DNA from: a virus
Taxonomy: Duplodnaviria > Heunggongvirae > Uroviricota > Caudoviricetes
Virus record (IMG/VR): IMGVR_UViG_3300033072_001087
Coordinates: 50,816-114,815 of that record
Reading direction: 5' to 3' (one strand)
DNA length: 64,000 nt
Each line of letters opens with the position of its first letter. Positions within the stretch are counted from its first letter, which is position 1. The notes below the pieces were generated by a model. That model had not been told where the DNA came from, did no database searches, and was given only the letters and a program-made list of their open reading frames with translations. Made by a program: the position numbers and the translations under genes. Below, one piece after another: positions 5,807 through 45,242 of this stretch.

Positions 5807-7105
5807 GTGAAAAAATACAAAGTTACGGAACGCAAGATCACCGATTACCAGCCTGACCCAACAAATCCGAATTTGGGTTCTGAGGAGGGATTGGCATTCA
5901 TAGAAAAGAGCTTGCGTGAAGTCGGCGGTGGGAGATCGTTGGTTGCGGACGAGAAAGACATTCTTGTTGCCGGAAATAAGACGCAGGAAGCTGCGGTCAA
6001 TGCGGGGATTACCGATGTCATTGAGATCGAGACTGAAGGGGATGTACTGATCGTTCACAAGCGGCGCGATTGGGACGCAGAACAATTGAACGGCGAAGCG
6101 CGACGCTATACGTTTCTCGACAATCGCGCATCCGAATTGTCGATGCGTTGGAATCCCGAACAGGTCAAACTGAATCTCGACGCTGGTATGAAACTGACAG
6201 ATGTGTTTGATCCGTTGACGCTCAAAAAGCTCATGAATAGCATCACCGGCGAAAACAGCGGTGCGGATCCGAACCGCACATCGAAAGGGCAGGTGGATAA
6301 AGCCGAGCAGATCCGCGCAAAGTGGAATGTCGAGAGCGGACAGGTCTGGCAAATTCCAAGCAAGTTCCGCGATGGGGCAGTGCATCGCGTGATGTGCGGA
6401 GACAGTGCGCAAACGGCGGATGTAGAAAAACTGATGCAAGGGATTATCCCCGATTTGTCGGTCACGTCGCCGCCCTATGCGGTAGGCAAAGACTACGAAG
6501 GCGCAACGCTGCAGGACTGGCGCGCGATTATCGCCGGAGTCTTCGGGGTTATGAGCGCGTGGGGGAATATCTGGTTTGTCAATTTGGGCGATCAAAAGAT
6601 CGGCGATGATGGCTTTGAGCATCACACCTACGGTGAGATGGTCGATCATTTTGAACGATCTTACGGATACAAGATTCTCACCACGCGTATCTGGAAGAAG
6701 GATGCCGCGTGGCAAGCCGCGCCGTACTGGAATACGACCTACAAGGCGGTTGATGAATTTGAGTATCTTGGTGTCTTTGCCAAAGACAAACCTAAGCACA
6801 TCATTCGTGTCGAAGGGCAGGAATACAACGACTGGGCAATACGCGGCGTTTGGGATATTCCATCGGTCCGCGCCAATACGCTGCATTCCGCACAGTTCCC
6901 GGTTGAAATTCCAATCCGTGCTATCCGGTTGTACACCGATTTTGGGGGGACGGTTCACGATCCGTTTGGCGGAAGCGGGACGACATTGGAAGCCGCCGAA
7001 CGATTGGGAAGAACCGCCTATCTGATGGAAAAGCAGCCGCATTACGCGGCAGTCATTTTAGACCGTGCGGAGAGCATGGGACTGGAGCCGAAATGCGATG
7101 AGTGA
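5807..7105 (+). CDS. ParB-like nuclease domain fused to an N4/N6 DNA methyltransferase.
   Basis: N-terminal ParB-like region. Methyltransferase motif IV SPPY (VTSPPYAVGKDY) and motif I HDPFGGSGTT. GTG start with a gagg RBS. Confidence 0.8.
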   Translation: MKKYKVTERKITDYQPDPTNPNLGSEEGLAFIEKSLREVGGGRSLVADEKDILVAGNKTQEAAVNAGITDVIEIETEGDVLIVHKRRDWDAEQLNGEARRYTFLDNRASELSMRWNPEQVKLNLDAGMKLTDVFDPLTLKKLMNSITGENSGADPNRTSKGQVDKAEQIRAKWNVESGQVWQIPSKFRDGAVHRVMCGDSAQTADVEKLMQGIIPDLSVTSPPYAVGKDYEGATLQDWRAIIAGVFGVMSAWGNIWFVNLGDQKIGDDGFEHHTYGEMVDHFERSYGYKILTTRIWKKDAAWQAAPYWNTTYKAVDEFEYLGVFAKDKPKHIIRVEGQEYNDWAIRGVWDIPSVRANTLHSAQFPVEIPIRAIRLYTDFGGTVHDPFGGSGTTLEAAERLGRTAYLMEKQPHYAAVILDRAESMGLEPKCDE

Positions 7106-7691
7106 TACGACTTACGAATGGGAAAGACAGAGTAACGAGTCAGAAGATCAGTATCGCGCTTTTCTGATCTACCGTGATTTGGGGCTGAGTCGCTCACTCC
7201 AAAAGGCATGGAAACAATATTCGCCGGATGCAACAGATAATCCTTCATCCGCGTTTTCCGGGTGGTCTTCGCGGCATAAGTGGCGCGATCGCGCGCGCGA
7301 ATGGGATCGGCATCTACAGCGCCTTGAAGATGCGACACAGGAAAACGAGTTTAAGGCAGTTCGCCGTGCGGAGAAAAAGAATCGGCTGGAGATGCTCAAT
7401 GCCCTGCGTTTAACGGCGACATATCTAGCCAACATCACGATTGGCGATGACAAGAAGTTCACAAAGTCGGCTGACATTAAAAACGCGGCAGGCGTGATCG
7501 CCATGTATCTTGAGCAGTCGCGGATTGAGATGGGCGAGGCGGTCAAGGGCGGTCAAGAAATTACGGTAAACGCAAATACAAAGGTGGATGTCAGTGATGC
7601 AGTCGCAACAGCCAGAGAGCGGCTTCAATCTCTCGTTGCTGAAAAGCCTGCCAAAGCAGAAGCAGCAAGAGATAATAAGCTCGTTCAGTGA
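7098..7691 (+). CDS. Putative terminase small subunit.
   Basis: Position immediately upstream of, and overlapping, the large terminase. Helix-rich N-terminus. ATGAGTGA start/stop overlap with the upstream gene. Confidence 0.4.
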   Translation: MSDTTYEWERQSNESEDQYRAFLIYRDLGLSRSLQKAWKQYSPDATDNPSSAFSGWSSRHKWRDRAREWDRHLQRLEDATQENEFKAVRRAEKKNRLEMLNALRLTATYLANITIGDDKKFTKSADIKNAAGVIAMYLEQSRIEMGEAVKGGQEITVNANTKVDVSDAVATARERLQSLVAEKPAKAEAARDNKLVQ

Positions 7692-8973
7692 CGAGGAAAT
7701 CCTACAACTCCTATACTCGTGGGAGTTTATGGCGCGTCCAAACCAGCTGCCACCGAAAGGCGACTGGCGCATTTGGCTTTTGATGGCGGGCCGCGGGTTC
7801 GGGAAAACGCGAGTGCTGTCAGAGTGGGCGCGGCTCATGGCACACAAAATGCCGGGCAGTCGTGGAGCAATTATCGCAGCCACCGCCGCCGACTCGCGTG
7901 ATACCGTCGTTGAAGGGCATTCCGGTATTCTGAACGTGTGTCCGCCTTGGGACCGTCCTACGTATCAGCCGACTAAGCGTCTCGTGCTTTGGGGCAATGG
8001 ATCGCGCGCGACGTTATTCAGTGCGGATGAGCCGAACCGATTGCGTGGTCCGCAGTTTCATTGGGCGGTATGCGACGAGCTAGCGGCGTGGCGCTACCAG
8101 AGCGCTTGGGATATGTTGGAGTTCGGTTTGCGTTTGGGGCAAAACCCGCAGGTGGTTGTGGCGACGACTCCGAAACCCGTTGCGCACTTGCGACGTTTGG
8201 TTAAAGACTCTGAGGATCCCGAAAACAAGATCTTCATCACGACGGGATCGATGTACGAAAACATCGATAACCTTGCGCCGACGTTCATCCGCGCGATTCT
8301 GCGCAAATATGAAGGTACGCGGCTTGGGGAGCAAGAAATTCACGCTGTTCTTCATGAGGATGCCAAATATTCGCTCTGGAAAAGCACGATGTTCGAGCGC
8401 GAGGGCTTCCGTTTTACGGATATTCCGCCGCTGGAGCGCATTGTTGTGGCGGTGGATCCGGCGATCAAGTCTGGATCGGAACGCAATGATGATGAATTGG
8501 ACGACAAGGTAACAGAGACGGGAATCATCGTTGTTGGCGTTGATCGGCGCGATCACGGGTACGTCCTTGAAGACGCGACGATCGCCGGGTCGCCGAAAGA
8601 GTGGGCGGACGAAGCGGTGCGAATGTACAAGAAATACAAAGCGGATCGAATCGTTGTCGAAATCAACAACGGCGGTGAAATGGTGGCGCATACCATTCGC
8701 ACAAGTGATCCGAATGTAGCGATTGCCGAAGTAAGCGCTTCGCGTTCAAAGCAAACACGCGCCGAACCGGTTGTCGCGTTATACGAGCAATGGCGTATTC
8801 ATCATCGCGGTGTTTTAGCCGATTTAGAGACGCAGATGGTGCAGTGGGAGCCGGGCGCAAAGTCTCCCGATCGTATGGATGCGCTTGTATGGGGACTCAG
8901 CTACCTTCTGATTAATGATCAAGAGGAAGCCTTAGAAATGATGCAGGGGCATTATGAGCATGTTAGTCGATAA
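7588..8973 (+). CDS. Terminase large subunit.
   Basis: Walker A-like LMAGRGFGKT, Walker B VCDELAAW, and C-terminal nuclease-like acidic motifs (VVAVDPA...). Confidence 0.85.
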   Translation: MSVMQSQQPESGFNLSLLKSLPKQKQQEIISSFSDEEILQLLYSWEFMARPNQLPPKGDWRIWLLMAGRGFGKTRVLSEWARLMAHKMPGSRGAIIAATAADSRDTVVEGHSGILNVCPPWDRPTYQPTKRLVLWGNGSRATLFSADEPNRLRGPQFHWAVCDELAAWRYQSAWDMLEFGLRLGQNPQVVVATTPKPVAHLRRLVKDSEDPENKIFITTGSMYENIDNLAPTFIRAILRKYEGTRLGEQEIHAVLHEDAKYSLWKSTMFEREGFRFTDIPPLERIVVAVDPAIKSGSERNDDELDDKVTETGIIVVGVDRRDHGYVLEDATIAGSPKEWADEAVRMYKKYKADRIVVEINNGGEMVAHTIRTSDPNVAIAEVSASRSKQTRAEPVVALYEQWRIHHRGVLADLETQMVQWEPGAKSPDRMDALVWGLSYLLINDQEEALEMMQGHYEHVSR

Positions 8974-10375
8974 TATCCGCAAAGGGGCAGGGGGATTCCT
9001 GCGCAGCATGATCGGATCGGTCGGCGGCTTTGCCGTCTCGCGCTACGATTATCAAGCCTATTTTTCAACGCGCGATGTGTCGCGTTCTGATTACCAGACT
9101 TTTGATCGGATGCGCCGCGCTAAAGCGCGCGGTTTTGAGTTATCGGGGCTGTTCCTCAAGCCGATGGCATCGAAGGTTGCTTCGTGGGTCTTAGGTGCTC
9201 CGCCAGAATACAAGTTCCCTGATCGAAAGACTGAGATCGCGGTTGAAGACTGGTGGCGGCGTAATCATGCCGATGTATTGAGAGCCTACGAAGAGTCGGT
9301 CAATCTTGGCGATTGCTACGCAGTTATCAACGCCGATCTGACCGTAACCGTCGTGCCACCGCATGTAGTCAAAAAGATTGTTGACAAGAAGAATTTCAGC
9401 AAAATCATCGGCTATAAAATTACCGAGCGGTATCCCGATCCTGATAAACCGTCCAGCATTATGACCATCACCGACGAATATTACGCCACGCACCGTTGGC
9501 ATACGCGTGAGATCAATGGTAAACAAGTCTTCCGAAAAAGCTACAAAAACCTGATTGGCATCAATCCGGTGGTGCATATCAAGAATCAGTTGGGCGCGGA
9601 TGAGGAAAACGGCAGACCGGAAGGCGAAGCGCTGGTCGCGTTGTTACAAATCTACAATGAAACGTTGGTCGCAGCACTGAAGGGGAATATCCGGCAGGGC
9701 AGACCGACGCCCGTCATTCAGAAGATGGGAACCGCTTCGCAGCTTAAAGCGTTCTGGGAAAAGTTTGGCAAAACCGAAACCATTACGCTTCCAAACGGAA
9801 GAACAGAGACCATCACCACGATTCCGTTCGATCCCGATCAATTGTTGACAGTAGGCGGCGAGTCTGAGTTCAAGTACGAAGCACCCGGCTCTTTCAGCGC
9901 GGATACCGTTGCGCTGTTGCAAATCTTGTTTTATCTGATTGTGCAGTTCAGCGAAATCCCCGAATTTATTTGGGGCAATGCGATTGGCGCAAGCAAGGCG
10001 AGCGCCGAATCGCAGATCGAACCGTTCGTTAAGTGGTTGGGGAAAAAGCGATCGCGCGCCCATTCATGGCTCAATTCAATAGCGACAATTGTCTTAGCAT
10101 ACATTTCGCTATATGATGATAGTGTCAATCGAGATTCGCTTCCAAGTATTCAGTGGAAGCCGCTCACAAGCGCAGATGGACGCTTGACACTCGATACGGT
10201 TATCTGGGCATGGAGTCAGAATCTCTTTGACAACGAAACAGCAGTCGCTTTGCTGCCAGTCGGGATTAGCAATCCTAAAGCCGTTCTTGCCAAAGGATTA
10301 GCAGAACCACGACACATGCAAGCGCCAGTAACTACAGATAACAAGAGTGACGACACTGGTGGGAAACCTCAATGA
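8954..10375 (+). CDS. Putative portal protein.
   Basis: 473-aa ORF directly after the large terminase, of the size and position expected for a portal. No diagnostic motif recognised. Confidence 0.5.
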   Translation: MSMLVDNIRKGAGGFLRSMIGSVGGFAVSRYDYQAYFSTRDVSRSDYQTFDRMRRAKARGFELSGLFLKPMASKVASWVLGAPPEYKFPDRKTEIAVEDWWRRNHADVLRAYEESVNLGDCYAVINADLTVTVVPPHVVKKIVDKKNFSKIIGYKITERYPDPDKPSSIMTITDEYYATHRWHTREINGKQVFRKSYKNLIGINPVVHIKNQLGADEENGRPEGEALVALLQIYNETLVAALKGNIRQGRPTPVIQKMGTASQLKAFWEKFGKTETITLPNGRTETITTIPFDPDQLLTVGGESEFKYEAPGSFSADTVALLQILFYLIVQFSEIPEFIWGNAIGASKASAESQIEPFVKWLGKKRSRAHSWLNSIATIVLAYISLYDDSVNRDSLPSIQWKPLTSADGRLTLDTVIWAWSQNLFDNETAVALLPVGISNPKAVLAKGLAEPRHMQAPVTTDNKSDDTGGKPQ

Positions 10376-10926
10376 GTGCAAGCGCGTTAGAGCAGACATT
10401 CTCGTTGTACTGGCAGACGCATTATCCCGATGCGCCGCAGCCGCGACGAGAATACCTCTTCCATCCACAGATGGATTATCGTTTCGATTTTGCGTGGCGC
10501 GATCATTTGGTCGCGCTTGAGATTCAGGGCGGCGCGTTCACAGGCGGTAAGCACGGACGCGGCAACGGGCTAACTTCCGATTTCAAGAAAAATAATGCCG
10601 CTATTGCGTTGGGCTGGCGCATTATCTACGCCTCAAGCCCAATGCTGCGTGGCGTTGCAATTACCGAACTCGGCGAGATTATCGCAGATCTGGTTTGGAC
10701 TCCCTTCTCAATTGCTGATTTGGATCGTTCGCGTTGGACAGCCGTCATTCGCAATCTTAAGCCTAAAGACAGCGAGATGATGCGGGGAATTTGCGTTCAA
10801 CGCGTGAGTGCAGGTAAGTACACTGTTGAGAAAAATGGACTCAACCGGGTGTTTACCAAAAAGAAGCTCAAGCTGCACGAGCTTCAAAGCGGCGTATTGG
10901 ACTATATACTAGGCGATCAACCATGA
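10372..10926 (+). CDS. DUF559 / Vsr-like PD-(D/E)xK endonuclease-domain protein.
   Basis: YRFDFAWRDHLVALEIQGG resembles the DUF559 core (RxDF...LaIEvDG). Confidence 0.4.
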   Translation: MSASALEQTFSLYWQTHYPDAPQPRREYLFHPQMDYRFDFAWRDHLVALEIQGGAFTGGKHGRGNGLTSDFKKNNAAIALGWRIIYASSPMLRGVAITELGEIIADLVWTPFSIADLDRSRWTAVIRNLKPKDSEMMRGICVQRVSAGKYTVEKNGLNRVFTKKKLKLHELQSGVLDYILGDQP

Positions 10927-12122
10927 AAATCCTCTTCTACACCCCGACAGTCGGGCGCGGCGGCGTACATCGCGTCGTGGAAACCGTCTTGGCGCAAATT
11001 GTCAAACAGTATCCACAGCACACCTATCATGCTTTAGGGCAGCGCTACAACGAAGTTGGCGATAAAGTCAAATATCCGTGTGCGCTTACACAGATTCGCC
11101 CGGTCAAGAAGCTGCCAGATCACCCGGAACAATTCAAGTTCTTACTCGACAACGCGGACGTGTTTTATCAGCACTTAGCCGAAATTGCGCCCAAGTACGA
11201 TCTGATTTACGCGCCGTCGATCTGGTGGGGGCTTCCGAAAGGGGAGTGGGAGATCACTACGCCGTTGGTTGCGACTATCCCCGATTTCGCTTTCGACATC
11301 ATGAATATGGGGTCGATTGCGCAGCACTTTCGATCGGTGATCCGAAAACTTGGCGAATTCAGCAACACACTCGTCGTCCACAGCCGCTATTGGCAGCAGC
11401 ACGCGCAGCAAACCTACGGCACTCAAAACATCGAAGTTATCGAACATACGCGTGATTTCCTGAGTAAATCGTTCGATTACTCGTTCGCGGAAGGCGTACG
11501 GGTAAGAGAGAAATACGGGCTGCCGAACGAATATGTCTTGGCGTTTCATTGCTATGGACACAAAGACCCGATCACGATTTTGCACGGGCAGTTGTATGCG
11601 CGTTCGCGCTCGCCGTATGTGCCGCCATTGGTGATCGCCGGACTTGAAACCGAACAATACGTAGAGGGCGCGCCCATAAAAGGCGGAGCCGAGTCTCACG
11701 TACATGAGGTTCGACGAGCTATTCGCGAGATTAAGGCGACGCTTGGGCGCGACTTGTGGATCCTTGGCAAGTTACCGGATGAGGATATTGGCGGCTTATA
11801 CGCGATGGCGATGTGTGCGGTTTCCGCGTCGGTCTCGGAGGGCGACTTGCCGGGAACTGCGTTTGAGGCAATTGAGTCGCGCACGCCGTTCATTTGTTCC
11901 GATTTTCCGATTTTCACCGAAAAGCTGGGTGAAGACTGCGCGTGGATTTTCCCGCGCCGCAATGCGAACAAGTACGGGCAAGCGCTGATCGAGTGCGTCG
12001 AAAATCGCGAAGAAGCGCTTCGCCGTGTCAACAATGCACTAGAGCGTACCGGTAAGCGCTCGGTAAAAGACGTGGCAGCCGAGTACATGACTCTATTTGA
12101 AAAGGCGGTCAGTGATGTATAG
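10923..12122 (+). CDS. Glycosyltransferase family 1 (GT4-type).
   Basis: N-terminal MKILFYTPTVGRGGVHRVV (GT4 N-domain) and C-terminal E..GTAFEAIESRTPFICSD (E-x7-E-like) motif. Confidence 0.75.
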   Translation: MKILFYTPTVGRGGVHRVVETVLAQIVKQYPQHTYHALGQRYNEVGDKVKYPCALTQIRPVKKLPDHPEQFKFLLDNADVFYQHLAEIAPKYDLIYAPSIWWGLPKGEWEITTPLVATIPDFAFDIMNMGSIAQHFRSVIRKLGEFSNTLVVHSRYWQQHAQQTYGTQNIEVIEHTRDFLSKSFDYSFAEGVRVREKYGLPNEYVLAFHCYGHKDPITILHGQLYARSRSPYVPPLVIAGLETEQYVEGAPIKGGAESHVHEVRRAIREIKATLGRDLWILGKLPDEDIGGLYAMAMCAVSASVSEGDLPGTAFEAIESRTPFICSDFPIFTEKLGEDCAWIFPRRNANKYGQALIECVENREEALRRVNNALERTGKRSVKDVAAEYMTLFEKAVSDV

Positions 12123-13092
12123 GGTAGCGGTTACAGGCGTCGGCGGCGGCTGTGGACAGGCGATTGTCAAGGCGCTGCGCATGTCGAAACTCCCGTTGGA
12201 AATTTTTAAGGTAGACATCACCCCATTATCGGCTGGATTGTTTTTCAGTGATGCAGGTTTAAGCGCGGTGCTTCCCGCGCCGGAAAAGTCGCTGACGGAG
12301 TGGGAACAGTTCATCGACGAGTTCGGCATTGATGCGATCATTCCGGGTTCGGATCACGATTTGCTGCCGTTGTCGATCGCCTTCTCGCGGTCGGTCGCGT
12401 TGGTAGCAAAACCATCGTTTGTTCGGATCGCGAATGATAAGGCTGAAACATATCGTACCGGTATTTATGCAATTCCGTCGATTTACGCGGCCGCAAATAC
12501 CGATGACATCCTTGCCTTTGCCGAAGCGCACGGCTTTCCGCTGATCGTTAAACCGCGCAACGGAATGACATCGCGCGGTGTTTCGCTGGTCAACGATCTA
12601 GAGGAACTGCTGTTTTACTGGAAGCACACAGCCAATCCGATTGTACAAAAGTACATCGACGGCGATGAATACACTTGCGCGGTCTATTTTTCACGTAGAG
12701 GCGAACCGGTCGCATTCTTCCAGATGCGGCGCTGGTTATATGCAGGATCGACTTATCGCGCGGAAGTGACGCATCACCCCATTGTTGAAGAATTTATGCG
12801 CTGCACGGCGGTTGCTTTGCAGCGGTATCGTCCGACCGGCCCAGTGAATTTGCAAATGCGATTGGACGCCAATAACACACCACATCTACTGGAAATCAAT
12901 GCGCGTTGTTCGGGTTCGACCGCAATGCGCGCGCATTTTGGCTACAACGAGCCAGAGATGCTGCTGCGTGAATATTGCGCAGGTGAAGACATCGAAATGC
13001 CAAAAACGCGAGATGGGGTCGCGATGCGTTATTGGGATGAATTGTACGTTGATAACGCGACGATCGAGGACATCAAAGGATTCAACCGGTGA
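12115..13092 (+). CDS. ATP-grasp domain enzyme.
   Basis: FPLIVKPRNGMTSRGVSLV and LEINARCSGST are ATP-grasp signatures. The ATG at 12115 overlaps the GT stop codon. Confidence 0.7.
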   Translation: MYRVAVTGVGGGCGQAIVKALRMSKLPLEIFKVDITPLSAGLFFSDAGLSAVLPAPEKSLTEWEQFIDEFGIDAIIPGSDHDLLPLSIAFSRSVALVAKPSFVRIANDKAETYRTGIYAIPSIYAAANTDDILAFAEAHGFPLIVKPRNGMTSRGVSLVNDLEELLFYWKHTANPIVQKYIDGDEYTCAVYFSRRGEPVAFFQMRRWLYAGSTYRAEVTHHPIVEEFMRCTAVALQRYRPTGPVNLQMRLDANNTPHLLEINARCSGSTAMRAHFGYNEPEMLLREYCAGEDIEMPKTRDGVAMRYWDELYVDNATIEDIKGFNR

Positions 13093-13994
13093 AAATCTTA
13101 GTGACAGGCGGAGCCGGGTACGTTGGCTCTGTATTAATTGGGGATATGCTCAATCTTGGTTACTCGGTGGTCTGTTATGATCGACTTGATCACGGAATAT
13201 CCCCGATTGCGGGGTATCTAGAACACCCGAATTTTGCGCTAATTGTCGATGACATCCGGCGCGGCTACGCGCTGCAGCAAGCGCTTTTGAAAGCGGATGC
13301 GGTCATTCATTTGGCTGCGCTGGTGGGGTATCCGATTTGTGAGCAATCACCGAAGGAGGCCGAAGGCATTAACCTTTTCGGATCGATCATGCTCAATGAG
13401 TCGCGATCGAAACATCAGCGTGTAATCTACGCGAGTACCGAGAGCGTTTACGGTGGCGTCAAAAATGCCGATAATGGCATATTGCACGAGTGGATGCAGA
13501 CCGATCCGCATTCAGTGTATGCGCGCACGAAATTGGACTCGGAATCCCCATTTTTGGATAAGGGGAATGCGGTTGTGTTTCGTTTCGCCACCGGATATGG
13601 GTTATCACCAAGAATGCGCGCTGATACGATGGTCAATGATTTTACCCGCCAGATTGTAAGGTCTGGAACGCTGTCGTTGTATGAGCCAAATGTATTGCGG
13701 TCGTTTGTTCATGTGCGGCAAATGGCGCGTGTTCTCCTACATGGACTTGGTGCATTTGAGGGATTATACAACGTTAGCGAGATCGGACTGCGCAAAGAAG
13801 CGTTGGTCAAGAAAATAATCGATCAAGTCGGCTACGGGCATGTAACCTATGGAGAGGGTGCGGATCTAGAGATGCGCGACTACTTCATGGATTGCAGCAG
13901 ACTACGCGAAAGTGGATTTGAGTTTCAGCCGATCCACATGGAATCGGCGATTAAAGCGATGGCGAGGTACTTTACACATGATACCGCTTGCTAA
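13089..13994 (+). CDS. NAD-dependent epimerase/dehydratase (SDR family).
   Basis: MKILVTGGAGYVGSVL Rossmann motif plus a YxxxK-type region. GTGA overlap with the upstream gene. Confidence 0.8.
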   Translation: MKILVTGGAGYVGSVLIGDMLNLGYSVVCYDRLDHGISPIAGYLEHPNFALIVDDIRRGYALQQALLKADAVIHLAALVGYPICEQSPKEAEGINLFGSIMLNESRSKHQRVIYASTESVYGGVKNADNGILHEWMQTDPHSVYARTKLDSESPFLDKGNAVVFRFATGYGLSPRMRADTMVNDFTRQIVRSGTLSLYEPNVLRSFVHVRQMARVLLHGLGAFEGLYNVSEIGLRKEALVKKIIDQVGYGHVTYGEGADLEMRDYFMDCSRLRESGFEFQPIHMESAIKAMARYFTHDTAC

Positions 13995-15063
13995 TCCAGA
14001 CATCACCAAAGTCGAACGCCGTCATGTCCTGCAGGCGCTTTGGTCAAACACCATTTCCGGCACGGGTCCACAAATTCGTGAATTTGAGGCGGCATGGGAA
14101 CAGCGCAGCGGGCGCAAACGCGCTTTCGCGGTGAGCAATGGCACCGTAGCGCTGGAGATCGCACTGCAAGCCATCGGCATTGGACCGGGGGATGAAGTAA
14201 TTGTTCCAGCATTGACATTCGCCGCGCCTGCTGCGGCGGTGCGCAGACTTGGAGCGACTCCGGTGTTTGCGGATGTTGGGGTGGATGCTGTAATCAACGT
14301 GCTATCGGTCGCCGAGCGAATTACCGAAAAGACGCGCGCAATCATCGCCGTCGATACGCTTGGCAACATCCCTGACTACAATGCGTTGATGGATCTGGCC
14401 TTCTATTACGGACTGACCGTCATCGAAGACGCGGCTGAAGCACATGGATCGAGTCGTTTGGGAAAACTCAGCGGAACCTTCGGACACATCTCGACCTTTT
14501 CTTTCCACGCCAACAAAACCATCACGACGGGCGAGGGCGGCATGATTCTACTAGACGACGACGACACGATCGGAGTCATTGAATTGATCCGCAATCATGG
14601 CATGAGAAAGCCATATATCCATGAAGTCGTCGGAACAAACGGTCGAATGACGAGCCTGACTGCGGCCCTCGGTATCGGGCAAATGCAGCGCTGGGACGAA
14701 ATCATGCAGCGTCGCAAAGAGATCGATCGCGCTTATGATGCTGTGCTACCAAGCGTGTATTATTCACTGCCCATATCGCCTAATACTTCCAGAATTGTGT
14801 GGCTGAAAACGATTTGCGTTCGGGATGAACATCACGACGGATTGCGCGATCGAATCGTCCACCGACTGCGGGAAGCGCAAATCGACGCGCGCGCCATCTG
14901 GCCGCCGTTGACCGGGCTGAAACCGTATCAGTCGGAGCCGCTGCCGGTTGCTGAAATCGTGAGCGGGAATTCGTTCTGGCTGCCCACCTATAATACATTG
15001 GGTGATGATGATATTTACCGGATTGGAGAGGAATTGAGGATCGCTTATGAACGAGAGAATTGA
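13978..15063 (+). CDS. DegT/DnrJ/EryC1/StrS-family PLP-dependent sugar aminotransferase.
   Basis: Motifs VIEDAAEAHGS and FSFHANKTITTGEGG (the PLP lysine region) are typical of DegT aminotransferases. Confidence 0.8.
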   Translation: MIPLANPDITKVERRHVLQALWSNTISGTGPQIREFEAAWEQRSGRKRAFAVSNGTVALEIALQAIGIGPGDEVIVPALTFAAPAAAVRRLGATPVFADVGVDAVINVLSVAERITEKTRAIIAVDTLGNIPDYNALMDLAFYYGLTVIEDAAEAHGSSRLGKLSGTFGHISTFSFHANKTITTGEGGMILLDDDDTIGVIELIRNHGMRKPYIHEVVGTNGRMTSLTAALGIGQMQRWDEIMQRRKEIDRAYDAVLPSVYYSLPISPNTSRIVWLKTICVRDEHHDGLRDRIVHRLREAQIDARAIWPPLTGLKPYQSEPLPVAEIVSGNSFWLPTYNTLGDDDIYRIGEELRIAYEREN

Positions 15064-15232
15064 TGCGCCAATGCGTGAAGTTCGCTGTCCGACGTGCAAC
15101 CATCTGTTGTTTTACGCAGATTCGTTGTCAAAACCGTACATCGAAATCAAGTGTTCATCGTGCAAGCATATCATCGCCGTTAATGGCGAAAATCAGGTCG
15201 TCAAGGTTGTGACGAAAAGAGTTGCGGAGTAG
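15047..15232 (+). CDS. Mu Com-like zinc-ribbon protein.
   Basis: VRCPTCNHLLFYADSLSKPYIEIKCSSCKHIIAV closely parallels Mu Com (RCKNCNKLLFKADSFDHIEIRCPRCKRHII). Confidence 0.6.
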   Translation: MNERIDAPMREVRCPTCNHLLFYADSLSKPYIEIKCSSCKHIIAVNGENQVVKVVTKRVAE

Positions 15233-15281
15233 CCTATTGCTATTCTGCAAAATAGTCTTACAATTGAGAAAGAATTAATTA

Positions 15282-15320
15282 GACGCCGTGAGCGCAATTC
15301 GTCTCACGGCGTCTTTTATT
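15282..15320 (+). terminator. Rho-independent terminator.
   Basis: Perfect 11-bp stem gacgccgtgag/ctcacggcgtc with a 10-nt loop, followed by TTTTATTT. Confidence 0.7.
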
Positions 15321-15331
15321 TGGAGAAAAGG

Positions 15332-16837
15332 ATGGAAACCGTCTATCTCAAGCTACCGGATGCGCTTAAGGAAGCGCTTGGAAGCATCAGCGGTGTGAAT
15401 GCTGAGAATTTGACGCTTCCAATCGCGACCATCCTAGACGACGCAGACGAAAACGCCGTCAGCGAAGCGCTGGATTATTTTGCGCAAGTCAGTGGCAAAG
15501 TCACAGGCAAAATCTCGTCACTCAGTCGTAATTTTGGCGATGAACAAGATCGGGTTGTAGTTGAACTTTTTTCAGAGAACTATAACTTTGGATACTTAGA
15601 TTTTGTTTTCTGGCTCTACGACATTAATGGTGCGGTAAGCAATCGGTTAAGTATCGAACTGATGACCATCGCGAAATCAGAGAGTATGCCGGGTGCAAGC
15701 TTATCGACGGAAATGTACGAATTTCGCGAATTGGTCTATCGCGACACAACGCGTGATTTAGCGGTCAAGGTACTCGGAGTAGGGGAGATGGCGAACGCGA
15801 AGCCAATGCTGGTCACAGAGAATCTACAGAAAAAAGACGGGCGATTGATGGTTGAAATGCGCGTCCGTGCGCAGTATGACCCATCGGCGTATCCCAAAAT
15901 CGCGCTGCCGTCCGATATTGTCGAAGGCAGCGGCGAAATGTTCATTACGCTGCCGGTGGCGGCGTTCGATGCGGAGTCCTTGAACGGACACACGTACCTT
16001 GAAAGTTCCGTCCGCGACATGCTCAACCAAATTAACGATCGCCGACCGGAATCCAACTGGGGGCATATCCCCGATCACGAGTTCTCGACGCGTTACGGCG
16101 CGCCACCAGTTCGCTGGCTGGCAGCGGTTGAGCAGGGCGGGACGATTTTTGCGCGCGGTCGCGTGTTGACGGACGAAGCGCGAACCTACTATGCCCGCGC
16201 TGACATGGACAAGGCGCGTGTTGGCACGAGTTTGTTTGCGTGGGTCGAAATGGAAGATGACCGCGTAATGCACATGGATCTGATCACGATTGATCTGGCG
16301 GATCCGGCACGAGTGGGTGTTCCGTTGACGGCGGCGCGTGCGGCTGTCAATGTTACCGAGATGAGTAAAGTCAAACAAGAGGCAGGAGCGGAAGAAATGC
16401 TGGAAGCGAAAGTGCGCGAACTGCTTGCGATTGACGAGTCTGCCGATGTCGAAAAGGAATTGGCGGCTGTAATCGAGTCAAGCAAGCTGGCACAGGAACA
16501 CGAAAAGGCGTTGGTTGAACTTGAGAACGAAAAAGTCGAATTGCAGTCGCAAATTGACGCGCTGAAGGAACAGGGCGCGGAATGGGCGAAGCAGTTTGTG
16601 GCGCTTTCGATCCCGGTTGAATTGGCGCGACAAACAGTTCTCGATCTGATGGATTTTTCGAAGATCGAAAACGTCGAACAAGCAAAGGAACAGCTGAAGG
16701 CGATCAAATCGCGTGCAGATGTTATTGCGCTCATCAAGGCTGGCGTGGTTGAAGAGTCCGGCCCTCCACAAAAACGCGGCACTGACGATGGTAGTGCTGG
16801 CGGCAAGTTCTTCAAGATTCCAGAAAGAGAGGAATAG
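15332..16837 (+). CDS. Head morphogenesis protein with a long C-terminal coiled coil (putative scaffold or protease-scaffold fusion).
   Basis: Sits between the portal region and the decoration/capsid genes. C-terminal heptad-rich segment (VRELLAIDESADVEKELAAVIESSKLAQEHEKALVELENEKVELQSQIDALKEQ). ATG at 15332 with a ggagaaaagg RBS. Confidence 0.4.
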   Translation: METVYLKLPDALKEALGSISGVNAENLTLPIATILDDADENAVSEALDYFAQVSGKVTGKISSLSRNFGDEQDRVVVELFSENYNFGYLDFVFWLYDINGAVSNRLSIELMTIAKSESMPGASLSTEMYEFRELVYRDTTRDLAVKVLGVGEMANAKPMLVTENLQKKDGRLMVEMRVRAQYDPSAYPKIALPSDIVEGSGEMFITLPVAAFDAESLNGHTYLESSVRDMLNQINDRRPESNWGHIPDHEFSTRYGAPPVRWLAAVEQGGTIFARGRVLTDEARTYYARADMDKARVGTSLFAWVEMEDDRVMHMDLITIDLADPARVGVPLTAARAAVNVTEMSKVKQEAGAEEMLEAKVRELLAIDESADVEKELAAVIESSKLAQEHEKALVELENEKVELQSQIDALKEQGAEWAKQFVALSIPVELARQTVLDLMDFSKIENVEQAKEQLKAIKSRADVIALIKAGVVEESGPPQKRGTDDGSAGGKFFKIPEREE

Positions 16838-16840
16838 TTC

Positions 16841-17218
16841 ATGGCTGGAAATCTGACGTACTTTGAAAGCGACGGCAAGTCAGTCACGGTCGATCTGACC
16901 TCGACAGTGCCGAAAGATCAGATCGCTTATGTTAGCGGTTTCTTGGGCATCGCGCTTCAATCCGGCGACAGCGGCGACTCGATTGCGCTGAATGTCGATC
17001 ATCGCGAGTATCAGTTTGTCGTGCCATCGGGCTTGTCGGTGTCGAAGGGCGATATTGTCTACATTGACACCGCCGATCTCACCGGCCATCTTCCAGACGA
17101 CACGGCATGGTCAACATCGGCTGGCTCTGGGAAAATTCGTTTGTGCAAGGCGACCTCGGCGAAGGACGCCAACAACATCGTTACAGGCATTCTTCTTGCA
17201 GGAGAACACGCGTCATGA
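16841..17218 (+). CDS. DUF2190-like head decoration protein.
   Basis: 125 aa. Pattern Y..DGK.V...S.G...VSGF.GIAL.SGDSGDSIAL resembles DUF2190 proteins found between protease and capsid genes. Confidence 0.5.
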   Translation: MAGNLTYFESDGKSVTVDLTSTVPKDQIAYVSGFLGIALQSGDSGDSIALNVDHREYQFVVPSGLSVSKGDIVYIDTADLTGHLPDDTAWSTSAGSGKIRLCKATSAKDANNIVTGILLAGEHAS

Positions 17219-18231
17219 AGATTATTTCTAAAGAGCAACTGATCAAGAGCCGCGACGTTGCTGCCGTAAGCGGCGAAGTCGATCTGAGAAAAGAACTCAG
17301 AATCGTTGAAAATTCGCCGGGGCGGACGGTGGTCGAGTTTGTCGGCACCGACGACTTCCGCGCCGAATGGTATGATCGTCAGCGCTACGAAGTTGACGCC
17401 GGACGCGACAGCGAACCGCTGCTGTATCAGCCGCTCTACCAAGAGACGGTTGATGCGTCGCTCCCACGCAACGTCACGGTCTTTCGTATCGGGCCGGGCG
17501 CTGTGGTCTTCGAAGAAATCTACGAAGGCGGCGAAGTCAAGTTCGTGACTGTCAATCAGTCCAACTATTCGGTTCAGATGCACCACTATGCGGTCGGTCT
17601 CGAATACGGGAAAGACCTCGTGATGTACAACGAACTGTGGAACTTGCCGATCATCGAACGTCAGGCGGGGATCGCGTTTAACGCGCTCAAGAATCACATC
17701 CACCTGAATCCGTTCATCAGCTATTCCTATGGCGCTGCCAATCAGACCGCCGCCAACACAGGCGGGGATTCGATTGTCGAGAATTACCTGCGCACGCTGG
17801 AAGACGCTGTGACGAACGCGACGGAAGATACAACCAATCCGCGCCGTGGCCCGTACTGGATTTTGTGCAGTACCGCCAATTTGTTCACGCTAGAACGCGC
17901 TTTGACGCGTGTGCCGCAAGAAGGCTTCACGCTGCAGTCGTCAGTGATGAACATGGTTCAGGGCATCATCGCCTACAACGGCTGGAGCGGAATGCGCGGA
18001 CACAAGGCAACCAGCTACAGCGGCGTCAGCGCCAACAAGTTGTACCTGATCGATGCGTCGGACAAGCTGCGTAATCTGCGCTCATTCGTCAAGCAGGATC
18101 TTGCGCCGACGATGGGCAACGAAGACGTGAGCCGCTTCATTTTGGAACAGGTCGTGTGGGACACGTACTTCACGATGTACGCCGACATTCCGGCGACGAC
18201 GGAAGAAGTGACGCTGCCAACAACGGCGTAA
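17215..18231 (+). CDS. Major capsid protein (HK97-like).
   Basis: 339-aa ORF immediately after the decoration-like gene, at the canonical position. No motif-level proof. Confidence 0.55.
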   Translation: MKIISKEQLIKSRDVAAVSGEVDLRKELRIVENSPGRTVVEFVGTDDFRAEWYDRQRYEVDAGRDSEPLLYQPLYQETVDASLPRNVTVFRIGPGAVVFEEIYEGGEVKFVTVNQSNYSVQMHHYAVGLEYGKDLVMYNELWNLPIIERQAGIAFNALKNHIHLNPFISYSYGAANQTAANTGGDSIVENYLRTLEDAVTNATEDTTNPRRGPYWILCSTANLFTLERALTRVPQEGFTLQSSVMNMVQGIIAYNGWSGMRGHKATSYSGVSANKLYLIDASDKLRNLRSFVKQDLAPTMGNEDVSRFILEQVVWDTYFTMYADIPATTEEVTLPTTA

Positions 18232-18233
18232 TC

Positions 18234-19247
18234 ATGAACATCTTCGCGCACACATGGGAACTTGCCGACAGCTATGGAAGGCTTGCCATTGAAACCGCAG
18301 ACGCCATTGAGCGCGTCTGCGGCGTGCAGGTTAATCGGGTCGGCGAACACAAACTTAACAAGCCAATCAAGCCCATGTTTGGCGGGGTTCTGACGGCGTA
18401 TCCGACGCAGTTTTGGAAGTACGGCCCGTTGTCGGAATTTGGAACACGAGTTGCGCTGACGATGTTTGAGTCAGACGCGCTGCCGATGGATTGGATCGAT
18501 CCGTTAAATGGTTGCGATACGGTAATTGTGCCGTCTAAGTGGCTGGTGGACGTATTTAAGTCCAGCGGGGTAACGAAGCCGGTATACGCGGAATCCATCG
18601 GAGTGAGCAGCGCGTTTCGATATGTCAAACGCAAGTCGAGTCCGGTGTTTAAGTTCTTGGCGATCGGCGATCACGCGGGTCGTAAGGGCGTGCATGATGT
18701 CCTATTCGAGTTCGTCCGGGCTTTCGGGGATCGGGATGATGTGCATCTATTCATCAAGACGCGCCACGCAACAATGGCGGGGTTTATGAACAAAAACATC
18801 ACGTTGATCAACGAAGAACTGAACGACGCGGATATGGCACGGCTGTATTGGGAATGTGACTGCATGGTGTTCCCGACGAAAGGTGAAGGGTTCGGGCTTC
18901 CGCCGCGCGAGTTTGCGGCGACCGGTGGAATCGCGCTGGTCACGAATTGGGGCGGCACGGCAGATGACATCGAACGTTGGGGAATACCGTTGCCATACAC
19001 GCTGGAAAGCGCGTGGGCGGGCGGCAAATTCGAAGGTATTGGGCGTTGGGCGCAGGTAGATCGCGTCCATTTGCGCACGCTGATGCAGTGGGTAGCGGCA
19101 ATGCCGTATGCTGCACGAATGGCGCTTGGCGCGGCATACGCTGAGAATGTCGCAGAGATGTACACATGGGATCGGTTCGGCAAGCGCGTTTACGAGATAT
19201 GGAGTGAGGCAAATGCCAACAGCCACACAGTACGCGCGGGTGCGTAG
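18234..19247 (+). CDS. Glycosyltransferase family 1 (GT4-type), second copy.
   Basis: FPTKGEGFGLPPREFAATGGIALVTNWGG is the GT4 C-terminal EX7E-type motif. Starts 3 nt after the capsid gene stop. Confidence 0.65.
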   Translation: MNIFAHTWELADSYGRLAIETADAIERVCGVQVNRVGEHKLNKPIKPMFGGVLTAYPTQFWKYGPLSEFGTRVALTMFESDALPMDWIDPLNGCDTVIVPSKWLVDVFKSSGVTKPVYAESIGVSSAFRYVKRKSSPVFKFLAIGDHAGRKGVHDVLFEFVRAFGDRDDVHLFIKTRHATMAGFMNKNITLINEELNDADMARLYWECDCMVFPTKGEGFGLPPREFAATGGIALVTNWGGTADDIERWGIPLPYTLESAWAGGKFEGIGRWAQVDRVHLRTLMQWVAAMPYAARMALGAAYAENVAEMYTWDRFGKRVYEIWSEANANSHTVRAGA

Positions 19248-20414: not shown

Positions 20415-20858
20415 ATGAGTCTTGAAAATAATGTCAGGGATTTTTTAAAAAGTGATGCAACGTTGGTTGCGCTGCTCACAGGCGGTATCTATTCATTCAG
20501 CGATGATGCCAAAACTAATGGTATCAATCGAAATGATACGCCGGGAGCGTATGGCACGAGTGGGCTAAAGCCGTGTGCGGTTGTGAAGTGTCCACAAGAG
20601 CGTATTTGGGGCGGAATTAACGACGGCAAAGTTCATTCACGAAGCGCGCGTTGCGAAATATATCTTTACGACGACGGCAAGCGCAAACGAGACGATGCGA
20701 TCGAAGCGGCCAAGACGAGACTGGAAGCCATTTTCGACGCTGAGTTTCATACCACTATCGGGCATAGCCGATTGCTTGGCTATGTGGAGGGGCGAGACAT
20801 AGAAATGTTGAACGCGCTTTTTTCACGCGCGGACTTTCAAATAGTAGGAGTAAGGTAA
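20415..20858 (+). CDS. Putative tail completion/terminator protein (DUF3168-like).
   Basis: Position plus an N-terminal ATLVALLTGGIY-type segment. Confidence 0.35.
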   Translation: MSLENNVRDFLKSDATLVALLTGGIYSFSDDAKTNGINRNDTPGAYGTSGLKPCAVVKCPQERIWGGINDGKVHSRSARCEIYLYDDGKRKRDDAIEAAKTRLEAIFDAEFHTTIGHSRLLGYVEGRDIEMLNALFSRADFQIVGVR

Positions 20859-22244: not shown

Positions 22245-22267
22245 GAGGGCGATCATTGATCGCCCTC
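22245..22267 (+). promoter_or_regulatory. Stem-loop (10-bp stem gagggcgatc/gatcgccctc) between the chaperone ORFs and the tape measure.
   Basis: Inverted repeat read from the sequence, followed by ttcgtgtt. Confidence 0.4.
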
Positions 22268-22314
22268 TTCGTGTTATACTTAAGCCGTAAACTATTTAAA
22301 TTAAGGCGACAACT

Positions 22315-43266: not shown

Positions 43267-44397
43267 CTAACGGTTGAGGCTCATCGGCATGATCACGCAA
43301 ACGAGTCCGTCATAGCTTTCTGGGCGAATCACCACCGGATGCGCCGCGCCGTGAGTCTCCAGAATAATGCGCTCGCTGTCGATGATATTCAGCACGTCGA
43401 TCAAGTAGCGAATGTTATACGCCACTTCCAGCGCTTCCCCTTCGACTCCGGCGTCGATCATGCCCTCACTATCACCGCGTTCGGCGCTGCGTCCCAAGAT
43501 CGATAACTGTCCCGGTTCACTGGGGCTGGCAGGCGGTTGTGCGATGAATCGCGCGCTGAAGTTGTTGTCGCGCGCAAAAATTTCGGCTCGCTTGCATTGA
43601 TTGAGCAGTTCATCGGCATATACCGTTATCGATGTACTGTAGGTTTTTGGAACAATAGCGTTGAAGTCTGGGAATTTACCGCTGATCAATTGCGACGTAA
43701 TGATCGTGCTTTCGTAATAAAACGCCACACCCTCTCGTTCATCGAGCATGGATAGTCCAAGCGGCCGCTCTTCATCGGTAATCACACGCGCTACTTCCGC
43801 TAACGTTCTTGCGGGAATGATCATCGGTTCACTTTCAGCGGACTCGTCAATTTGACTTGTCCGAACTGACAGACGATACCCATCCGCTGAAGTCATTGTC
43901 AGCGCGTTATTGCCGAACTGAGTATAGATGCCACCCAAAACAGGGCGAGAGTCTTCCTTCGCCGCAGCAAAGACTGTTTGCGTAATCATCTGCTTGAATA
44001 CGCCGGATGGTAGTTGTACGGACGCCCCTTTTGTTTCAGGAATCGGAGGGAATTCTGACGCCGCAATGCCCTTGATGTTCGATTTGGTCGTACCACAGCG
44101 GACATTAACCGTTTGCGTTTGCGCGTCAAGTATTAGATCGACTCGTTCAGATGACAGGTTATTGACTAATTCAGCGAATGTCTTAGCGGGAAGCGTAATC
44201 GCGCCGGGAACATCGATTTTCGCACCGACATAGGTTGTGATGCTCATTTCGAGGTTCGTTGCGACGAGTTTGAGGCGGGCATCTTCGGTCATCAACAGCA
44301 CGTTCGCCAAGACCGGCAGAGTCGGACGCGACTCGACAGCTTTGGCGACAATACTTAATCCTCTGGCGAGCTGATCTTGCAAGATTGAAACACGCAT
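43267..44397 (-). CDS. dnaN: DNA polymerase III beta subunit (sliding clamp).
   Basis: 376 aa. N-terminus MRVSILQDQLARGLSIVAKAV...PVLANVLL and the three-domain clamp pattern. Confidence 0.8.
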   Translation of the reverse strand: MRVSILQDQLARGLSIVAKAVESRPTLPVLANVLLMTEDARLKLVATNLEMSITTYVGAKIDVPGAITLPAKTFAELVNNLSSERVDLILDAQTQTVNVRCGTTKSNIKGIAASEFPPIPETKGASVQLPSGVFKQMITQTVFAAAKEDSRPVLGGIYTQFGNNALTMTSADGYRLSVRTSQIDESAESEPMIIPARTLAEVARVITDEERPLGLSMLDEREGVAFYYESTIITSQLISGKFPDFNAIVPKTYSTSITVYADELLNQCKRAEIFARDNNFSARFIAQPPASPSEPGQLSILGRSAERGDSEGMIDAGVEGEALEVAYNIRYLIDVLNIIDSERIILETHGAAHPVVIRPESYDGLVCVIMPMSLNR

Positions 44398-45242
44398 TAC
44401 GTTGACTCCTCATTGATTGTTAGGTTCGCGAACATCGGTAGTGTTCGGATTGGATCGTAATTCATCCACAGCGATTCCATCTTCTGCTTTGGCGTCCCTG
44501 TGCCGCTAACTGTATTTACGGCAAAGTCCCTGCGCGTATACCCGTTTAAAGCGGAATACAACGCATTATCGTAGCCGCTCAAAATGACATATGCCTTCTT
44601 GATCGCGTTTAAAGCGGCGACCAACCGTTCGTGATGCGCATCATCAACATCATTTTCATACCGCGCTTCGGTCCGCGTCGATAAAACATATGGCGGATCA
44701 AGATAAATCAACGTCCGTTCGCGGTCAAATTCGCCGATCAGTTCCAGTGCGTCGCGGTTGGTCACAATGACCGTCGATAGCCGCGCGTGTAATTCCGGCA
44801 TTTCATCGACCGATGACAGGAAATCGCTGACCGACTTGCTCGTATTACGGCGAACGGTTGTGTTGATTGAGAACCCCCCAATGCCATTATGCCGTGTCCG
44901 ATTGACGTACCAGAAACGGAATGCGCGCTCAACATCATCCAATTCGCCGCGCAGCGATACGCGGTACTCGTTCGATGTGCTTTCGTCATAGAGCGCTAAC
45001 TGACACAGGCGATAAAATTCCGCGAACAACGCCTCATCGCGCAGCACTTTGAATAAGGCGTAGACATTCCGATTCACGTCGTTGTAGAGTTCAATCGGAA
45101 CGCGCGGCTTGTTGAGCAGAACAACGCCGCTTCCGCCATACGCATCCACGAACGTGTCGTATAAGGACTCGTCAGGGAAATAAGACAACAATTGCGCGAT
45201 CATGCCGCCTTTTCCGCCAAAATACTTGACCGGTGCGTTCAT
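44397..45242 (-). CDS. dam: DNA adenine methyltransferase (Dam-like).
   Basis: KYFGGKGGM (motif I region), DAYGGSG, YLDPPYVLSTR (DPPY). Start placed at MNAPVKYFGGKG. Confidence 0.75.
   Translation of the reverse strand: MNAPVKYFGGKGGMIAQLLSYFPDESLYDTFVDAYGGSGVVLLNKPRVPIELYNDVNRNVYALFKVLRDEALFAEFYRLCQLALYDESTSNEYRVSLRGELDDVERAFRFWYVNRTRHNGIGGFSINTTVRRNTSKSVSDFLSSVDEMPELHARLSTVIVTNRDALELIGEFDRERTLIYLDPPYVLSTRTEARYENDVDDAHHERLVAALNAIKKAYVILSGYDNALYSALNGYTRRDFAVNTVSGTGTPKQKMESLWMNYDPIRTLPMFANLTINEEST

Follow-up and report, generated by a model that had tools for sequence, protein, structure and literature searches.

A Com-family zinc-ribbon gene beside a Com-type hairpin in the leader terminator of a phage scaffold gene: a possible antitermination switch

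What does a regulator known from DNA modification do in front of a gene for a head protein? The question is raised by a 64,000-nucleotide (nt) stretch of a tailed-phage genome (IMG/VR record IMGVR_UViG_3300033072_001087, positions 50,816 to 114,815), here called the window, which is part of a large phage with its own replication genes. It contains a small open reading frame (ORF) that resembles com of phage Mu. Mu Com binds RNA, and its established action is the translational activation of mom (PMC6483171); the characterised Com homologues all precede Mom or DNA adenine methyltransferases (PMC3299994). In the window, com abuts no modification gene. The gene 3' of it encodes a scaffold-like head protein and stands 99 nt off, behind a terminator. 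A preliminary description of the locus had already placed a Com-like ORF at 15047-15232, followed by a terminator and a scaffold gene rather than by mom; the ORF and the residues quoted from it match the window exactly, and the other elements are all in place. The answer developed here is that this Com probably targets no DNA-modification gene but the leader of the scaffold gene that follows it, and that its mode of action may be antitermination.

This presumes, of course, that the ORF is a Com. It encodes 61 amino acids (aa), MNERIDAPMREVRCPTCNHLLFYADSLSKPYIEIKCSSCKHIIAVNGENQVVKVVTKRVAE, has a GAGGA Shine-Dalgarno (SD) sequence 5 nt 5' of its start, and shares its first 17 nt with the end of the DegT aminotransferase gene. 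The product matches PHROG 13819, "gpCom control of modification", with E=4.7e-9 and phrog_6417, "translational regulator", with E=1.5e-7. When 50,697 phage records were searched by tblastn, Mu Com and its near-identical relatives were the top matches (48% identity, 82% query coverage, E=7e-4); pairwise BLASTP aligns the ORF with Mu Com at 21/40 identities, with two residues inserted between one Cys pair and the other. An independent hidden Markov model (HMM), built from 40 PF10122 proteins with the window sequence excluded, gives the ORF 50.2 bits (E=6.4e-15) and matches no other of the window's 716 ORFs. A profile that includes the window ORF retrieved 2032 database proteins, and PF10122 stands on nearly all of the matches listed. 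The resemblance to Mu Com on which the preliminary description had remarked is thus above chance.

That description had proposed an alignment with the Com family as its check, and this, too, gives significant matches. The zinc ligands of Mu Com are Cys6, 9, 26 and 29 (PMC3299994). C14, C17, C36 and C39 of the window protein align with these, despite a spacer of 18 rather than 16 residues (C-x2-C-x18-C-x2-C in the window, C-x2-C-x16-C-x2-C in Mu). The columns that are invariant in 41 family members, Mu Com included, are R13, C14, C17, L20, L21, E33, C36 and C39. NCBIfam matches are to generic zinc-ribbon models only. AlphaFold models a small all-beta, five-strand fold (predicted local distance difference test, pLDDT, 73); a PDB sequence search and a Foldseek search with this model returned no Com structure and no significant fold match, a ribbon of this size being too small for either search to discriminate. 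A word-indexed protein search by the single sequence returned nothing but that sequence, an exact-sequence contig look-up gave no match, and near-identical DNA was not found in the phage collection. The idea that the ORF is a frameshift product or a structural protein was dropped, since it has its own SD and start and its homologues are free-standing. Judged by its sequence, then, the ORF is a Com-family zinc ribbon, and its product would be expected to bind zinc and RNA.

The family also has larger forms. Proteins P0020, P0124, P0126, P0128, P0129 and P0138 are multi-ribbon or ribbon-bearing variants in the database. Tandem Com-like ribbons occur in some database proteins (109-113 aa with 2 matched stretches; 472 aa with 5), and others carry a Com-like ribbon at the N-terminus of a protein of ~500 aa.

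What RNA might this Com bind? Systematic evolution of ligands by exponential enrichment (SELEX) and probing have given the recognition motif of Com as CC(N)2-3GAG or GAG(N)2CC, which the RNA presents, often twice, in the loop of a hairpin whose closing pair is C-G (PMC6483171). The Mu target, AUGC-CUGCGA-GCAU (hairpins are written here as stem-loop-stem), was located at 1308-1321 of L006 (loci of the comparison carry such L numbers), adjoining the stem that pairs the mom start codon; in this inhibition structure, CCCAC pairs with the GUG start, GUGGG. The leader of the window's scaffold gene holds a hairpin, CGC-CGUGA-GCG, that satisfies the published rule. It lies 52 nt past the com stop and 38 nt before the scaffold ATG, and it is entirely inside the 5' arm of a structure that resembles an intrinsic terminator.

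The two structures therefore share bases and are mutually exclusive. The nascent RNA 15271-15299 folds only into the Com hairpin (-2.2 kcal/mol), and the full leader folds into the terminator (-23.8 kcal/mol). The window has just one other strong terminator on its + strand. Folding of 15225-15350 gives -45.5 kcal/mol, with z=-6.3 against shuffled sequence. The predicted transcript start is at ~15271, ~10 nt 5' of the Com hairpin, and the terminator stem begins ~16 nt past the -10 element. The scaffold gene's SD and AUG stay unpaired when the leader folds, the terminator stem ending 8 nt before the SD. This means that the terminator is the only strong structural block, and that the Mu arrangement, a stem that pairs the start codon, is absent. 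For read-through transcripts of the window and of its relative L088, folding also predicts weak long-range pairings that enclose the terminator and touch the SD. Rfam gave no match for the leader when 14900-18500 was searched. GAG-UAG-CC across the com stop (15227-15234), which lacks the published spacing, is not claimed as a second half-site; likewise, a consensus promoter match alone was rejected as evidence, its score being at chance level.

Relatives of this phage have kept the leader. L118 has the same four sugar genes, a Com that is 58% identical to that of the window (phmmer; 55% in global alignment), a 100-nt leader, the scaffold gene and the cement gene; L121 has Com (49% identical), the leader and a scaffold homologue. 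Between the window and L118, nucleotide identity is 82% in the leader, against 64% in the com ORF, 73% in the scaffold gene and 66-68% in the epimerase and GT4 genes. A leader under stronger constraint than the genes around it (82% vs 64-73%) argues against the suggestion, made in the preliminary description, that com may be a relic. The blocks conserved in L118 are the -35 element, the -10 element with the first transcribed bases, the 5' arm with the loop, the 3' arm, and the SD with the start; the promoter hexamers are kept in L118 and L121 while the spacer between them diverges. The Com hairpin, which is within the terminator in both relatives, is identical to that of the window in L118 and changed only at a loop N position in L121 (CGC-CAUGA-GCG). 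The terminator stem of L118 is kept through G-U wobbles. In L121, G has become A in the 5' arm and C has become U in the 3' arm, a compensatory replacement of G-C by A-U. Searches for further relatives through the scaffold protein in viral contigs and through the capsid protein in GTDB genomes found none.

L088, the nearest of the more distant relatives, whose capsid protein is 48% identical to that of the window, has a minor head protein, one 225-aa GT2/TAGT-like glycosyltransferase, Com, the leader and the scaffold gene. Here, the four-gene sugar cassette is replaced by a single GT2/TAGT-like gene, and Com and the leader are retained. Because Com and leader are kept while the sugar genes vary, it is the scaffold gene, and no particular sugar cassette, that Com accompanies. 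The Com hairpin of L088, GCGC-CCAGA-GUGC, overlaps a terminator, and a promoter-like element stands at the same place (TTGACA-18-TACAAT, 11/12). Further, L088 has a second such module before its 1008-aa tape-measure gene (PF10145): at 14917-15013 come TGcTATAAT, which reads as an extended -10 promoter, 14 nt, the hairpin GCGCGC-CAAGA-GUGUGU overlapping a terminator, U6, an SD and ATG. This echoes loci, described below, where com itself precedes the tape measure.

A second module of this kind was not found before the tape measure of the window. The 10-bp (base pair) hairpin at 22245-22270 (+), GAGGGCGAUC-AUU-GAUCGCCCUC, which follows the stop of the gene preceding the 1769-aa tape measure, has no Com motif and a poor U run. 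In L088, a third similar hairpin, GCGC-CCCAGA-GCGU, is at 13328-13341. The scaffold homologue of L088 (7985-9616) has an N-terminal 2H-phosphoesterase-like domain with two HITL motifs, weakly matching Acb1 (PF23474, E=3.6e-4) and LigT; the window protein is without this domain. The glycosyltransferase upstream of its Com (7002-7679) matches the TET-associated glycosyltransferase family PF20691 (30.4 bits, cut-off 27.5) and GT2.

How readily would such a hairpin fall beside com by chance? A strict Com-type hairpin was defined as having 3 bp or more in its stem, a closing C-G pair and the loop C-N2-3-GA. The 64-kilobase (kb) window has nine of these on the + strand and four on the - strand, so that the chance of one in a 99-nt leader is ~1%. 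Outside the window, IMG/VR, GTDB genomes and metagenome contigs were scanned with the protein and with small alignments, and contig look-ups were added; the survey yielded 116 Com ORFs, which form 35 clusters at 70% core identity. A strict hairpin lies within -80 to +260 nt of the com stop in 12 of the 35 clusters, where 5.5% would be expected (P=1.8e-7). The density of such hairpins is 1.88/kb within -80 to +150 of com stops, against 0.14/kb elsewhere on the same strands. In the classical methyltransferase and Mom loci, the hairpin is inside the 3' end of com (-43 to -79); in head-type loci, it is past the stop (+1 to +195), and every leader there has it 37-41 nt ahead of the start codon. Of seven head-type leaders, five contain the literal published motif; dinucleotide shuffles would give 0.89 (P=2e-4). 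Terminators have been sorted in the same way. Five of the nine within 260 nt downstream of com carry the hairpin on their 5' side, and only 1/43 of the others (Fisher P=2.7e-4); that one belongs to the L088 module before the tape-measure gene.

The survey also tells where Com genes stand. Many, in agreement with the literature (PMC3299994), overlap or abut Mom or DNA methyltransferase genes; among these are Mu, L050, L116, L111, L101/L099/L096, L103, L036 and the FluMu type. Others stand among head genes. The order is portal, a 147-aa protein, Com, Peptidase_S78 prohead protease and HK97 capsid in L001, L106-108 and L109; Com, head maturation protease and major head protein in L005; and Com followed by a Mu-like gpI protease in L043/44. 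Com precedes a DUF4355 scaffold in L098 and, with a 111-aa protein between them, in the L037 group; in L112/113, an SPP1-type portal and a minor capsid protein precede Com, Phage_scaffold and capsid. Com thus occurs without any sugar genes in unrelated phages (L001, L106, L109, L005, L043, L098 and L112). A third context is directly upstream of a tape-measure gene, in L008, L009 and L010.

In that third set, Com-like genes lie between the tail-chaperone region and the tape measure, at 6010-6150 in L008 and L009 and at 5161-5310 in L010. The tape measure of L008 is of the PhageMin_Tail family and is followed by a Dit-like gene. The set includes the IMG/VR relatives closest to the query (51-52% identity); their 29-nt spacer has a hairpin without the strict Com motif.

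The HK97-type loci repeat the layout of the window. Their hairpins, GUGC-CGUUGA-GCGC in L001, GUGC-CAACGA-GCGC in L106 and GUGC-CCAAGA-GCGC in L109, all overlap a terminator, and L109 has a promoter-like element at the same place (TTGACC-17-TAGAAT with TG, 10/12). Tandem GAG(Y)GCC repeats, like those of the bipartite SELEX product, are present in the leaders of L001, L106, L109 and L088. The hairpin-in-terminator layout therefore recurs in two unrelated lineages, one comprising the window, L118, L121 and L088, the other L001, L106 and L109, and in both, every leader has a U tract behind the stem. RNAalifold was uninformative on a leader alignment across the lineages, because the Com motif and the terminator stand in different registers in the two.

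Terminators between blocks of phage genes are common, of course, and the one at issue might be an ordinary operon-end terminator, or a 5' stabiliser of a highly expressed scaffold-capsid message. Com would then regulate the stability or 3' end of its own transcript, or nothing here. Com-adjacent terminators without the motif, as in L005, L098 and L056, are what this explanation would lead one to expect, and a 5'-proximal stem ~10 nt from the predicted transcript start could protect an mRNA. It does not sit well with the position of the promoter-like element, which in the window as in L118, L121, L109 and both modules of L088 is upstream of the terminator, not after it. Nor would it account for the specific enrichment of the Com motif in com-adjacent terminators, or for a second L088 module that is far from com. 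We regard it as quite unlikely.

The reading that we prefer, and hold with about even confidence, is that Com would bind the nascent leader hairpin, block the terminator and so release the expression of scaffold and capsid. The leader would be transcribed from the promoter after the com stop and also by read-through from the operon of terL, portal, sugar genes and com. The first structure that it could form is the Mu-type Com hairpin at 15284-15294. Without Com, the same bases would become the 5' arm of the terminator at 15281-15321, and transcription would halt 10 nt before the ribosome-binding site of the scaffold gene. With Com on the nascent hairpin, the terminator could not form, and RNA polymerase would continue into the scaffold, cement and capsid genes. 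Since com is the last gene of the upstream operon, such a circuit would delay bulk synthesis of scaffold and capsid until the portal, the packaging proteins and Com had been made. This timing would suit a procapsid assembly that is nucleated by the portal.

A broader proposal can be put forward only tentatively, with somewhat less than even confidence. Beyond activating the translation of DNA-modification genes, Com zinc ribbons may be widespread in phages as RNA-binding antiterminators, controlling blocks of structural genes (capsid with scaffold or prohead protease, and tape measure) by way of Com hairpins in leader terminators. Some genomes would have several sites, making a small Com regulon that orders the assembly of the virion.

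Several facts weigh against antitermination. Mu Com acts on translation, not on termination (PMC6483171). The Com hairpin of the window has a stem of 3 bp, very weak beside the terminator with which it competes, so that any effect must be kinetic and dependent on the protein. The leader promoter has 9/12 consensus matches, a score that is common by chance. In Pfam, the model PF10122 (Zn_ribbon_Com) gives the ORF 21.5 bits, 1.4 bits short of the gathering score of 22.9. The strict hairpin was defined after Mu and the window had been viewed, although the motif itself comes from the literature. Lastly, the full hairpin-in-terminator layout is found in only two independent lineages; the com-adjacent terminators of L005 and L098 are without the motif, L112 has no terminator, and L037 and L043 have the literal motif only.

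The first of these facts leads to an obvious alternative. Com might activate translation here as it does in Mu, opening a stable stem 8 nt upstream of the SD to give the ribosome access or a standby site, with transcription unaffected. This would be the established mode of action of Mu Com (PMC6483171), and several features of the leaders fit it: the uniform distance of the hairpin from the start codon (37-41 nt) in head-type loci, the closeness of the terminator stem to the SD, and the weak long-range pairings that are predicted to touch the SD in read-through transcripts of the window and L088. Conversely, the SD and AUG are unpaired in the leader fold, unlike the start codon in the inhibition structure of Mu, and the U tract that follows the stem in every leader of both lineages would be superfluous for translational masking. 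We consider purely translational activation unlikely. Translational and antitermination effects could coexist, since the stem ends so near the SD.

The surroundings of com bear on a further possibility. Table 1 gives the features of this part of the window; the genes from terminase to com are tightly packed, with overlapping stops and starts.

Table 1. Features of the window between the first DNA methyltransferase gene and the glycosyltransferase ORF behind the major capsid gene
Feature	Position	Strand	Remarks
ParB-N/N6_N4 DNA methyltransferase	5807-7105	+	
Large terminase	7588-8973	+	
Portal	8954-10375	+	
184-aa protein	10372-10926	+	phrog_503
GT4 glycosyltransferase	10923-12122	+	
ATP-grasp enzyme	12097-13092	+	
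NAD-dependent epimerase	13089-13994	+	
DegT aminotransferase	13912-15063	+	
Com-family CCCC zinc-ribbon gene	15047-15232	+	ATG to TAG, 61 aa; from ORF list and family searches
Non-coding leader, 99 nt	15233-15331	+	
Sigma-70-like promoter, TTGCTA-16 nt-TACAAT	15237-15264	+	consensus scan; begins 5 nt past com stop
Intrinsic-terminator-like hairpin and UUUAUUU	15281-15321	+	stem 15281-15314, GC-rich, 14 pairs, one bulge
Com-type RNA hairpin, CGC-CGUGA-GCG	15284-15294	+	C-G closing pair, loop C-N2-GA, contains CC(N)2GAG
Shine-Dalgarno GGAG	15322-15325	+	scaffold ATG at 15332
Scaffold-like head protein, 501 aa	15332-16837	+	weak PHROG head-protein match, coiled-coil C-terminal part
Cement/decoration protein	16841-17218	+	Phage_cement_2
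Major capsid protein	17215-18231	+	phrog_3116
GT1/GT4-like glycosyltransferase ORF	18234-19247	+	EGFGLPPREFAATGG motif; directly after major capsid gene

The preliminary description had counted com as the end of the sugar cassette and had suggested that it may control the translation of a modification enzyme. The target would then be a cassette gene, the post-capsid glycosyltransferase or a methyltransferase, acted on through its translation. There is reason to take this seriously. Every characterised Com homologue is followed by Mom or a DNA adenine methyltransferase (PMC3299994), and so are the Com genes of L111, L101, L103, L036 and L116; the window itself has three DNA methyltransferase genes. 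Further, a candidate second Com hairpin, treated below, falls in the 5' part of the glycosyltransferase-like ORF. Yet no Com-type hairpin, even with a 2-bp stem, is found near the start of any sugar-cassette gene or of the methyltransferase gene at 5807, and none near the methyltransferase starts at 45293 and 47820 on the - strand; within 5-19 kb, the only Com hairpin that adjoins a gene start is that of the scaffold leader. The position is also wrong. Classical com precedes its target and has the hairpin within its own 3' end, while the window com is downstream of the cassette. Finally, Com and the leader persist where the cassette does not, in L088 and in unrelated phages. Neither part of that suggestion therefore fares well; we think it highly unlikely that a modification enzyme is the target.

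The candidate second site is a 10-bp hairpin at 18295-18322 (+), CCGCAGACGC-CAUUGAGC-GCGUCUGCGG, with CC(N)3GAG in its loop, 64 nt past the stop of the capsid gene. GACGCC-N2-3-GAGCG is common to this hairpin and the leader, and these are its only two occurrences on both strands of the window. A counterpart at the matching place in L088 was not found. On the strength of its sequence, we propose with low confidence that it may be a second Com site. Another Com-type hairpin, of 6 bp (AUACGC-CGGGA-GCGUAU), is at 20536-20552 (+) inside the ORF 20415-20858, with no terminator after it; its core, GCCGGGAGCG, is one mismatch from the leader, and the hairpin may be there by chance.

As for what the sugar genes do, the post-capsid glycosyltransferase ORF is kept in L088 (11057-12064). 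This ORF, together with the amino-sugar cassette between portal and com, suggests glycosylation of the virion (capsid) rather than modification of DNA. The three methyltransferase genes of the window are the ParB-N/N6_N4 fusion at 5807-7105 (+) and, on the - strand, those at 44397-45293 and 47026-47820, of the Dam-family and CcrM-like N6_N4 types. The replication module has a 382-aa adenylosuccinate-synthetase homologue (53515-54663, -; PF00709, E=1.4e-49), which scores 153 bits where the curated cut-off for PurA is 402, and 64.5 where that for PurZ is 300. It is possibly a divergent PurZ-like enzyme, which would point to 2-aminoadenine DNA.

In the literature searched, whose coverage is incomplete, Com figures only as an activator of the translation of mom and a few phage methyltransferases, and no description was found of Com homologues before head or tail genes, or as antiterminators. 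If the antitermination reading is true, a very small (~45-70 aa) protein-RNA antitermination switch would be new to the phage regulatory repertoire. It would account for strong terminators amid morphogenesis operons, and annotation pipelines would have a reason not to infer DNA modification from the label "Com". Com and its RNA hairpin already serve as a tool for tethering proteins to RNA; natural Com variants with other hairpin specificities would widen this toolbox.

How, then, does the proposed switch compare with known systems? The closest is Mu. Like Mu Com, the window protein is a CCCC zinc ribbon of about 60 aa, with 53% identity over the 40-residue finger and the signature E-x-R-C-x2-C-N-x-L-L...IEIKC-x2-CK. 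As in Mu, a cognate hairpin (C-G closing pair, loop C-N2-3-GA) lies beside com, on the same strand and upstream of the regulated gene. Unlike Mu, the proposed target is a scaffold head gene rather than a DNA-modification gene; the hairpin is past the com stop, not inside the 3' end of com, and within the 5' arm of an intrinsic terminator, not abutting a stem that pairs the start codon; the spacer between the Cys pairs is longer by two residues; and the likely level of control is the termination of transcription, not translation. Other non-mom targets are known, from FluMu, Pnm1 and Pseudomonas phage B3, whose Com proteins are linked with DNA adenine methyltransferases (Drozdz et al. 2012, PMC3299994), so that Com regulators are re-used for other genes. 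These differ from the window in that com overlaps or abuts the methyltransferase gene without a terminator (gaps of -8 to -59 nt in L101, L103 and L036).

A second comparison is with lambda. There, as in the window, a regulator gene is followed by a promoter that looks constitutive, a promoter-proximal terminator and the late structural genes. Lambda Q binds promoter DNA and rides on RNA polymerase, and the likeness of the layout to Q-PR'-tR' brings up one last alternative: Com might be a late activator like Q or Ogr whose target is DNA or RNA polymerase at the leader promoter, rather than RNA. The NCBI family name, "Com family DNA-binding transcriptional regulator", would agree with this. Published experiments, on the other hand, show that Com binds RNA (PMC6483171), the Com-like ORF has no Pfam match to the Ogr_Delta or Q families, and no sequence similarity to lambda Q was found. 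Unlike in lambda, the conserved element is a Com-type RNA hairpin in the transcribed region, with covariation across loci. This makes action on DNA or polymerase the least probable explanation of all.

The antitermination reading shares its logic, rather, with the antiterminators BglG, SacY and LicT. In these, the ribonucleic antiterminator (RAT) hairpin that the protein binds shares bases with the 5' arm of a leader terminator, and binding and termination exclude each other. The likeness is an analogy only: the folds are unrelated (CAT and PRD domains against a zinc ribbon), and the window gives no sign of control by a sugar phosphotransferase. Set beside Mu, the window and the loci that resemble it suggest that the Com module has been rewired, both to a new control point, the intrinsic terminator, and to new targets, the structural genes of head and tail.

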